Shown: one piece after another, positions 21,522-22,292 of the stretch
How positions within the stretch are numbered: position 1 is the first letter of the stretch
Layout: every line of letters starts with the position of its first letter
Virus record (IMG/VR): IMGVR_UViG_3300020724_000020
Source: a virus
DNA: 31,516 bases
Strand: one strand, 5' to 3'
Program-made: the position numbers and the translations under genes
The notes under the pieces: generated by a model
Told to the model about the DNA's origin: nothing
Database searches by the model: none
The model's input: the letters and a program-made list of their open reading frames with translations, nothing else

Positions 21522-22292
21522 ATGAAAATCGCAAACGAAATTATCGAGAAATTACAGGCTCTTAAAGGACTTAACCTTGATACCGCTTTCCTTATCTTCA
21601 AAGAAAAGAGATTGAATGTTAAACAGAGTGGCTTTGTTGAGAATGTTATTGCACTTTTGATTGACAGGGATCTTCCTAAAAATGAACGCGGTATGGACTT
21701 CAAAGGTTTATTTGAAGTTAAAGAAATCAAAGTAAAATTTACCAAAAGAACTGGTGAGATGCGTACAGGTGGTGATACTGCTATTAGTGCTTATTTGAAC
21801 TCTGAACCAAACTTCTTTGAATCAAACATTTGGGATAAATCAAAAAGTATTCTTATCGTTTGTGTTGATGAAAAAAGAATTGTTGTTGATGTTCGTTTCT
21901 TTGATGGTGAACTCTTTGCAGAACAGATGAAGAAAGATTATGAAGCAATTAAAACTGCTAGGAACCTTTGTCGTCAGAACAATGAAATTTTAGTTTTCAA
22001 AACTGGTCGTAACTCTATCATGATGAAGGGTAACACAGCTATTACTATGAGTGAAAGTATTCTTTCTGATGAAACGAATGAAATTGTTGATCAGGATACA
22101 TTTATTCGTGATATGTTTGACGAAAAGTTTGCTTCTTATCAGGAAAAAGTGAAGAATGCGGCTGAAACAATTTGCTTCTTAATGGATCGTCTTTCTATTG
22201 CTGATTTAGAAATGATTAAGAAATTGGCTGAATCTAAAATCAAGAATAGTGTAGGTTTTGATATGAATACTGGTGTTGAATTACCTTTCTAA
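21522..22292 (+). CDS. MutH/Sau3AI/DpnII-family (GATC-type) PD-(D/E)XK endonuclease-like protein
   Basis: GMDFKGLFEVKEIK matches MutH PDF..LGVELKT (D-x6-E-x-K); start set at Met9 of ORF 21498-22292. Confidence 0.55.
   Translation: MKIANEIIEKLQALKGLNLDTAFLIFKEKRLNVKQSGFVENVIALLIDRDLPKNERGMDFKGLFEVKEIKVKFTKRTGEMRTGGDTAISAYLNSEPNFFESNIWDKSKSILIVCVDEKRIVVDVRFFDGELFAEQMKKDYEAIKTARNLCRQNNEILVFKTGRNSIMMKGNTAITMSESILSDETNEIVDQDTFIRDMFDEKFASYQEKVKNAAETICFLMDRLSIADLEMIKKLAESKIKNSVGFDMNTGVELPF

Follow-up and report, generated by a model that had tools for sequence, protein, structure and literature searches.

Nucleases of the MutH type have been described in two contexts: as restriction enzymes, and in the methyl-directed mismatch repair that a few Gammaproteobacteria carry out. 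MutH itself (E. coli and H. influenzae; Pfam family PF02976; PDB 2azo, 2aor and 2aoq) combines a DEK motif with an N-arm/C-arm clamp, and MutL contacts its C-terminal helix (PMC3848065). In the active site, K116 positions the attacking water, and H112 contacts the backbone on activation (cryo-EM preprint, bioRxiv 10.64898/2026.04.21.719898). Sau3AI, a Type IIE enzyme for GATC (4pxg, 7xm0), is a protein of 465–490 aa that contains two MutH-like domains and has a methyltransferase beside it, and the Type IV methylation-dependent enzymes NhoI and Eco15I (8rpx, 8q5n) carry MutH-like domains in smaller (~155 aa), dimeric form. Here we describe a MutH/Sau3AI-like gene at positions 21522–22292 of IMG/VR virus record IMGVR_UViG_3300020724_000020, a stretch of 31,516 nucleotides that we refer to as the window. 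The encoded protein of 256 aa is a divergent but genuine MutH/Sau3AI-family PD-(D/E)xK nuclease whose active-site pattern looks functional. We consider it probable that the protein is an active, metal-dependent endonuclease of a divergent MutH/Sau3AI branch, maintained as a stable single-copy gene of huge (up to ~400 kb), AT-rich, Mahaphage-related phages. The fold and chemistry are known; new are the branch in huge phages, missed by Pfam, PHROGs and PADLOC, the lack of a linked methylase or MutL in the loci examined, and the separable tail module. Our literature searches found no characterised phage MutH-like enzyme.

To place the protein, we used two alignments of its relatives, a close one (A1; 48 homologues from a large protein collection, 55–100% identity) and a diverse one (A2; 28 members, mean column identity 24%). 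A HMMER profile search of 1.84 billion cluster representatives returned only 36 proteins at E ≤ 0.001, and the family is, at the sequence level, small and sharply delimited. Searches with the window protein against Pfam, PHROGs and PDB sequences, and by tblastn against 50,697 GenBank phage records, gave nothing useful; a 29-sequence A1 profile matched no PDB sequence, and PHROGs and PADLOC searches with 28 family members assigned no family.

An AlphaFold2 (AF2) model built on A1 reached a mean pLDDT of 86 and a pTM of 0.75, and Foldseek against the PDB ranked MutH first (2aor, E 2.6e-5, probability 1.0; also 2azo and 2aoq), followed by NhoI and Sau3AI, with NhoI and Eco15I scoring lower than MutH or Sau3AI. 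The predicted fold is that of MutH, with an N-arm bearing the catalytic sheet and a C-arm clamp. Independently of structure, 11 members of the remote set of 28 matched PF02976, with E values of up to 1. The strongest bridge is a relative, P0072, which the A1 profile linked to the window family at E 2.2e-14 among the 1.84 billion representatives and which itself scores 27.7 bits against PF02976 (gathering score 23, E 2.6e-6), spanning the catalytic block through the following helix. For the window protein the Pfam MutH link is thus transitive only, through relatives such as P0072. A first-pass annotation, made from the letters alone, had called the gene MutH/Sau3AI-like and proposed a profile search for the MutH fold as its check. 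The Foldseek ranking, the PF02976 matches in relatives and the hhalign register described below all uphold that call, and the profile search supports the family by way of A1, P0072 and PF02976 and by hhalign. Two uncharacterised phage proteins in BFVD, A0A8F8X6W8 (503 aa) and A0A7D5JWA5 (Synechococcus phage S-CAM7, 196 aa), also matched by Foldseek (E 3.8e-6 and 9.6e-5; 11–17% identity) and, as far as the alignment lengths show, have no C-terminal module; MutH/Sau3AI-like domains therefore occur in other phages.

We next compared the active sites, using hhalign to align A2 with E. coli MutH (a query sequence identical to PDB 2azo). D59, E65 and K67 fall on MutH D70, E77 and K79, with D59-F60 over D70-F71; further along, S101-N102-I-W-D-K106 lies over S-H112-V-R-H-K116, and D139-Y140-E over D-W-E. 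The earlier alignment of GMDFKGLFEVKEIK with the MutH catalytic block is confirmed by hhalign, with the same register by hmmsearch. Its description as an intact D-x6-E-x-K site was half right: the D...ExK site is intact, and the spacing is D-x5-E-x-K, a D-to-ExK hairpin one residue shorter than in MutH. Across A2, G57, D59, F60, K67, G84, K106 and D123 are invariant (K106 in A1 too), position 65 carries E, with D as an alternative in some members, and E40 and N102 are at least 90% conserved. K106 is the predicted equivalent of the second catalytic lysine, MutH K116. The two proteins also share colinear N-terminal helices, a conserved glycine (G16, MutH G26), a KGW/SGF motif, the D...ExK triad, the D-W/Y-E helix and the S-x-V/I-x-x-K helix that carries the catalytic lysine, and both are single-domain proteins of ~230–260 aa. 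At ~14% identity, the relation escapes Pfam and PDB sequence searches, and the window protein differs further in a C-arm beta hairpin ~20 residues shorter and in an extra helical C-terminal module of ~65 residues with a conserved -ELPF tail.

This module is the most unusual part of the protein, and the first-pass annotation overlooked it. Beyond the nuclease core, which runs to about residue 189, the AF2 model has three helices and a disordered tail; the two helices of the module proper span residues 213–221 and 226–243, and the tail has pLDDT below 50. The full-length close homologues all terminate in [DE]-[LM]-x-F-COOH. Of the 22 remote members that exceed 200 aa, 11 also have a terminal phenylalanine, with endings that include DNLPF, DDDLAF, DDLEF, DELNF and SELQF.

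The module also exists on its own. Five proteins of 50–61 aa (P0079, P0081, P0082, P0084 and P0085) consist of a short basic N-terminus and the C-terminal module. In one related locus, L014, the 50-aa gene occupies the slot of the full-length gene, between homologues of the ORFs at 21026..21430 and 22928..23431 and upstream of CYTH; L016 and L019 are arranged in the same way. By tblastn, only residues 212–256 found a match in L014, with no remnant of the nuclease domain, and none was found in the L016 slot either. A 70-aa ORF for a predicted membrane protein lies directly upstream of the L014 mini-gene, where the nuclease domain would be. Comparison of two mini-genes (Nei–Gojobori) gave a pS of 0.365 and a pN of 0.062, and the resulting pN/pS of ~0.17 therefore indicates purifying selection. 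Because the mini-genes share the slot and are under purifying selection, the C-terminal module is, as its sequence conservation indicates, an autonomous, functional unit.

The tail recalls that of SSB, the bacterial protein that binds single-stranded DNA and whose C-terminal tip, DDDIPF or DDDLPF, is where many proteins of repair and replication dock (PMC5531588). The shared elements are a disordered C-terminus, acidic residues, L/I, P/x and F-COOH, and a conserved pattern of the docking-tail type is present in the window protein, in a tail of low pLDDT; the match is short, covering only 4–6 residues, and sits on a nuclease or a 50-aa helical mini-protein, not on an OB-fold. We also considered a beta-clamp-binding motif (QLxLF), and L-x-F fits the SSB tip better. 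Acidic, Phe-terminated tails are found in phage T7 gp2.5 and gp4 as well. The likeness of the tail sequence to the SSB tip is a resemblance, and only a lead.

What carries this gene? Homologues lie on contigs of 97–400 kb, five of them on IMG/VR viral contigs, and carrier contigs encode an endolysin (PHROG E 2.6e-39), a Thg1-like enzyme, GIY-YIG endonucleases, TnpB and a weak match to T4 Gp23; PHROG families are also matched by several of the window's proteins. Two of the large contigs are ENA ERZ19032877 scaffold_6, of ~400 kb, and ERZ15184987 NODE_19, of 212 kb. The vault-protein-like gene nearby (Vault_3 and MVP_shoulder) is 47–51% identical to uncultured huge phage records, LR756500 (462 kb) and LR756501/LR756503 (735 kb). 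These are presumably genomes of Al-Shayeb et al., whose 735-kb genome falls in the Mahaphage clade and has Bacteroidetes as its predicted hosts (PMC7162821). No MutH-like homologue was found near the MVP gene of LR756500. A single scan of 185,579 GTDB species-representative bacterial and archaeal genomes with two-peptide seed patterns returned zero relatives. Large contigs, homologues in IMG/VR, a vault gene that matches huge phages and an empty GTDB scan together place the gene in a huge phage and not in a bacterial array of cassettes.

Within these phages the gene occupies a conserved slot. An all-against-all ORF comparison recovered the order MVP ... MutH-like ... CYTH in the window and in four related loci (L004, L007, L009 and L011): in full, the vault-like gene; cREC_REC, glucosaminidase and SIS genes; small paralogous ORFs; the MutH-like gene; more small paralogous ORFs; and CYTH. 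Each locus has one MutH-like copy. Two copies lie in different neighbourhoods, one in L013 (65% identical) and one, P0078, in L006 (28% identical). P0078, the only remote member for which we have genomic context, came from a second homologue search, with A2, that otherwise gave mainly the close set again; it adjoins genes for thymidine kinase, NT5C, NUDIX and DeoC, which fits a nucleotide-salvage setting.

We then searched for partners. The methyltransferase motif scan covered ORFs of at least 120 aa in the window and 16 relatives' loci (259 kb, partly redundant) and found no [DNS]PP[YFW] motif and no PCQ plus ENV pair; a Pfam search of the window's larger ORFs likewise gave no methyltransferase. 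Only four ORFs within 9 kb reach 200 aa: the MutH-like gene, the vault-protein-like gene and two without a Pfam match. No MutS, MutL or Dam gene was found in the window or in the ~10-kb flanks of any locus examined. The claims that the gene is solitary, that no methyltransferase lies in the window or within 9 kb, and that this is not a canonical mismatch-repair MutH all hold up within the scope of these scans, with one copy per locus and no DNA methyltransferase within ~10 kb in 16 loci.

The distribution of GATC sites does not name the target. The window holds 49, three of them inside the MutH-like gene, and 172 kb of carrier loci hold 299. Markov observed/expected (O/E) ratios in carrier loci were 0.61 for GATC, 0.53 for CATG, 0.52 for ACGT and 0.65 for TCGA. 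We rejected GATC avoidance as a pointer to the target: the O/E ratio of GATC is 0.4–0.6, with similar values for CATG, ACGT, AGCT and TCGA, and carriers do not stand apart from non-carriers. GATC-like recognition is a default guess, drawn by analogy from family membership only. If plain GATC were the target, the phage DNA would have to be protected in some other way; otherwise the target differs. One relative, in its loci L004 and L005, avoids TCGA, CCGG and CTAG far more than GATC (TCGA, 1 versus 15 expected and 0 versus 8.4), which suggests that host restriction systems with different specificities exert pressure.

Allosteric activation is needed by both MutH (by MutL in trans) and Sau3AI (by its second domain in cis) (bioRxiv 10.64898/2026.04.21.719898; PMC3848065), which makes latency likely for a MutH-like domain that stands alone. 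By analogy, the window protein would nick or cut specific sites but stay latent until a partner switched it on or positioned it; it would engage this partner through the C-terminal helical module and the acidic-aromatic tail E-L-P-F-COOH. In a lytic huge phage, the most likely and most economical use would be to attack the DNA of host or competitors during takeover, with nicks or cuts that would feed degradation and nucleotide salvage. The phage's own DNA, with its many GATC sites, would be spared, perhaps by a modification encoded elsewhere, by a target other than plain GATC, or by the latency of the enzyme. Our best reading is an active, probably partner-regulated, site-specific phage nuclease, its target and role being inferred.

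Several observations weigh against this reading. The window protein has no direct sequence match to MutH in Pfam or PDB, and against PF02976 it gave no match even at E 10, the gathering score not being reached. The hhalign match to the single MutH sequence has an E value of 0.0037 and a probability of only 8.9%, as is expected for a single-sequence template, and the hmmsearch profile gives the same register with a weak score of 2.3 bits; with scores of 8.9% and 2.3 bits, the residue equivalence to MutH rests on a weak alignment together with conservation. The MutH E56 position aligns with A44, and the invariant glutamate, E40, lies four residues earlier, one turn away in the same helix; E40 may be a candidate third acidic residue replacing E56. 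The nuclease domain has been lost in some relatives and is hence dispensable there. GATC shows no specific avoidance in carriers (O/E 0.61, against 0.70 in non-carrier related loci). The SSB-tail resemblance is short, and the close family is less acidic, with one or two acidic residues. Flanks in relatives covered only ~10 kb on each side, and a methyltransferase or MutL/MutS-like partner may lie farther away; the specificity, the choice between nicking and double-strand cutting, and the partner are all things that we infer.

An unlikely alternative is that the protein is the nuclease half of a phage Type II GATC-type (Sau3AI/DpnII-like) restriction–modification system, with its methyltransferase at a distance in a genome of ~400 kb, protecting the phage's own DNA by methylation and restricting host or co-infecting phage DNA. 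Membership of the MutH/Sau3AI family fits, as do the many GATC sites that are kept and would need protection if GATC were the target, and orphan Dam-like methylases are common in phages. On the other side, restriction and modification genes are normally adjacent, and no methyltransferase motif lies within ~10 kb in 16 loci; Sau3AI needs two MutH-like domains, whereas the window protein has one plus an unrelated three-helix C-terminal module; and no PADLOC or restriction-enzyme family is matched. PADLOC-DB 2.0 gave only chance-level matches (pAgo, E 0.006, and PDC-M04B in one remote member). With a phage context and no PADLOC defence model matched, the restriction, defence or anti-plasmid role favoured by the first-pass annotation is not supported.

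We regard as doubtful, on present sequence evidence, a second idea that would extend our reading: that the C-terminal module (~209–256, ending -ELPF) is a portable mimic of the SSB tip that serves host takeover, whether fused or free. It draws on the tail pattern and its limits as given above, and we return to its consequences below.

Still less probable is a free-standing homing endonuclease or other selfish mobile nuclease gene spreading among related phages. The slot is stable in five phage loci, yet the nuclease domain is absent from L014 and L016. The sharing of the slot at only 72–81% identity, with a 65%-identical copy elsewhere, fits vertical descent; there is one copy per locus; and decay of a mobile element does not explain a mini-gene under purifying selection. 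A 42-nt imperfect inverted repeat, 79% complementary, brackets the gene (21448..21489 and 22280..22321), and we judged it likely to be chance, given its AT-rich make-up and the total of 53 pairs of this kind within 4.3 kb.

Two further explanations seem highly improbable. In one, the protein nicks for true strand discrimination, together with a MutL/MutS-type system of the phage or the host, and so raises the replication fidelity of a very large phage genome. MutH is indeed the closest structure, the K116 and H112 positions are conserved, and the C-terminal extension is located where the MutH C-terminal helix contacts MutL (PMC3848065); against this stand the lack of any MutS, MutL or Dam gene in the window or the loci examined and a nuclease that is dispensable in relatives. 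The presumed hosts, Bacteroidetes, use MutH-independent repair, which also counts against it. In the other, the protein is a catalytically inactive DNA-binding effector or regulator, like the Sau3AI C-terminal domain, and here the invariance of D59, K67 and K106, with position 65 always E or D at 24% mean identity, is the pattern of a working site. The setting implied by the first-pass annotation, a stand-alone bacterial defence or anti-plasmid nuclease in a chromosomal cassette array, is hardly credible: it accords with a solitary gene that has families of repetitive small proteins on its flanks, but the evidence of origin all points to huge phages, with a conserved slot in their lineage, no relative in the 185,579-genome scan and no PADLOC match.

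The coordinates of the gene, with those of the other features, are collected below.

Table 1. Features of the MutH-like gene, its stand-alone module relatives and the remainder of the window. Positions refer to the window unless a related locus is named.
Feature	Position	Strand	Details
MutH/Sau3AI-like gene, complete	21522..22292	+	256 aa; ATG 21522; TAA 22290..22292
Nuclease domain, ~aa 1–189	21522..22088	+	Colinear with MutH N-arm and C-arm
Invariant V39-E40-N41 within helix 39–46	21636..21644	+	A1, A2, hhalign
Putative catalytic block GMDFKGLFEVKEIK, aa 57–70, D59-x5-E65-x-K67	21690..21731	+	hhalign; A1/A2 conservation
SNIWDK helix, aa 101–106; N102 and K106 at MutH H112 and K116 positions	21822..21839	+	hhalign, hmmsearch
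C-terminal module, ~aa 209–256, two helices and disordered tail	22146..22289	+	AF2; stand-alone homologues
Extreme C-terminal tail V-E-L-P-F-COOH	22275..22289	+	Family consensus [DE][LM]xF
Stand-alone module genes, 50–53 aa	L014 4004..4156; L016 2976..3137; L018 969..1130; L020 407..565		
T-rich upstream element ending CGTATCTTTG	21468..21500	+	22 nt before ATG; direct-repeat family D2
KYNL family, examples	7062..7415, 8147..10850, 14293..17168, 24281..26342, 30835..31152		
RKxKL family, examples	502..1626, 5276..8118, 11501..12111, 19885..20961, 22357..23431		
Vault-like gene, residues 391–805	18542..19786	+	
Vault-like gene, residues 317–391	12145..12369	-	Residues 1–316 missing
IS607-like pair	2152..3754	-	106-aa serine-recombinase (Resolvase) fragment, GTG start, overlapping 431-aa ORF
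Signalling/RNA-end-processing gene, cREC_REC	13788..14222	-	
Signalling/RNA-end-processing gene, response-regulator receiver	17208..17564	+	
Signalling/RNA-end-processing gene, CYTH	23605..24015	+	
Papain-family (Peptidase_C1) cysteine protease	3951..4715	+	E 8.5e-16; PHROG peptidase 5.9e-17

A longer ORF starting at TTG 21498 (21498..22292, + strand) is possible. Because all full-length homologues begin at the methionine encoded by ATG 21522 (MKI or MKV in 45 of 45), we take the gene to start there, in agreement with the ORF listing and the earlier annotation. The window has a G+C content of 27% and densely packed small ORFs; ORFs are dense under table 11, and an alternative genetic code is not indicated. 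It contains no tRNA and no Rfam family. T-rich elements like the one upstream of the gene also precede two upstream genes (19857–19889 and 20973–21005), and the element overlaps a hairpin, ACGGATTT...AAATCCGT. A promoter role for it is only a guess: the Bacteroidetes-type -7 promoter TAnnTTTG, present 22 nt upstream of the gene, is not enriched across the window (62 observed, 61 expected).

The genes on either side belong to large paralogous families, as the description of them as cassette-family proteins had it. Twenty-one window ORFs end in KYN[LVM], most starting with MKYIKLFE or MKHLKLFE, and 23 carry a C-terminal R-K-x-K-L-x-K-L. These proteins, of 60–200 aa with one of 456 aa, take up a large part of the window and lie immediately beside the MutH-like gene, and the family libraries recognised none of the members tested. 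The conservation of their terminal sequences suggests a shared sorting, packaging or interaction signal. Directly downstream of the MutH-like gene, two short overlapping ORFs of 48 and 60 aa (22316..22584, +) resemble a single RKxKL-family gene with a frameshift; the counterpart in L007 is intact, at 84 aa.

Other features of the window lie further afield. That huge phages conserve a homologue of the major vault protein is itself out of the ordinary; the gene is intact in relatives, at ~805 aa, and split in the window, reflecting either inversion/rearrangement or misassembly. The 431-aa ORF of the IS607-like pair is TnpB-like by eye, yet matches no Pfam or PHROG family, and the related locus L005 has a 404-aa OrfB_IS605/Cas12f-like TnpB. 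The signalling and RNA-end-processing genes form a cluster around the locus in this phage lineage, to which relatives add genes for radical SAM, GGDEF, Thg1-like tRNA-His guanylyltransferase, SIS, NUDIX and metallophosphatase proteins (L001 7656..9311 and 12346..13155). The papain-family cysteine protease is of an enzyme class uncommon for phage.

Taken together, these phages hold a strongly conserved, distinct MutH-like branch as a stable gene. If the tail does imitate the SSB tip, it would be a new phage route into the host DNA-repair machinery. The fused module would link a phage nickase to SSB-interacting host enzymes (such as ExoI, RecJ, RecQ and PriA) or to the phage replisome, and nicks would pass directly into processive host DNA degradation. 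Host takeover would thereby make use of a phage-made counterpart, independent of MutL, to the nick-then-excise step of mismatch repair. The free 50-aa protein of sister phages would then act alone as a decoy, blocking the host's SSB interactome or redirecting it. As a compact, single-domain and probably sequence-specific nickase, the protein may serve as a tool, and its case illustrates that structure-based annotation can assign biochemical activity within the unannotated gene content of huge phages. The family also offers a natural experiment on the regulation of latent MutH-fold nucleases, in which the presumed regulatory or docking module is separable and, where the nuclease has been lost, persists as a mini-gene under selection.

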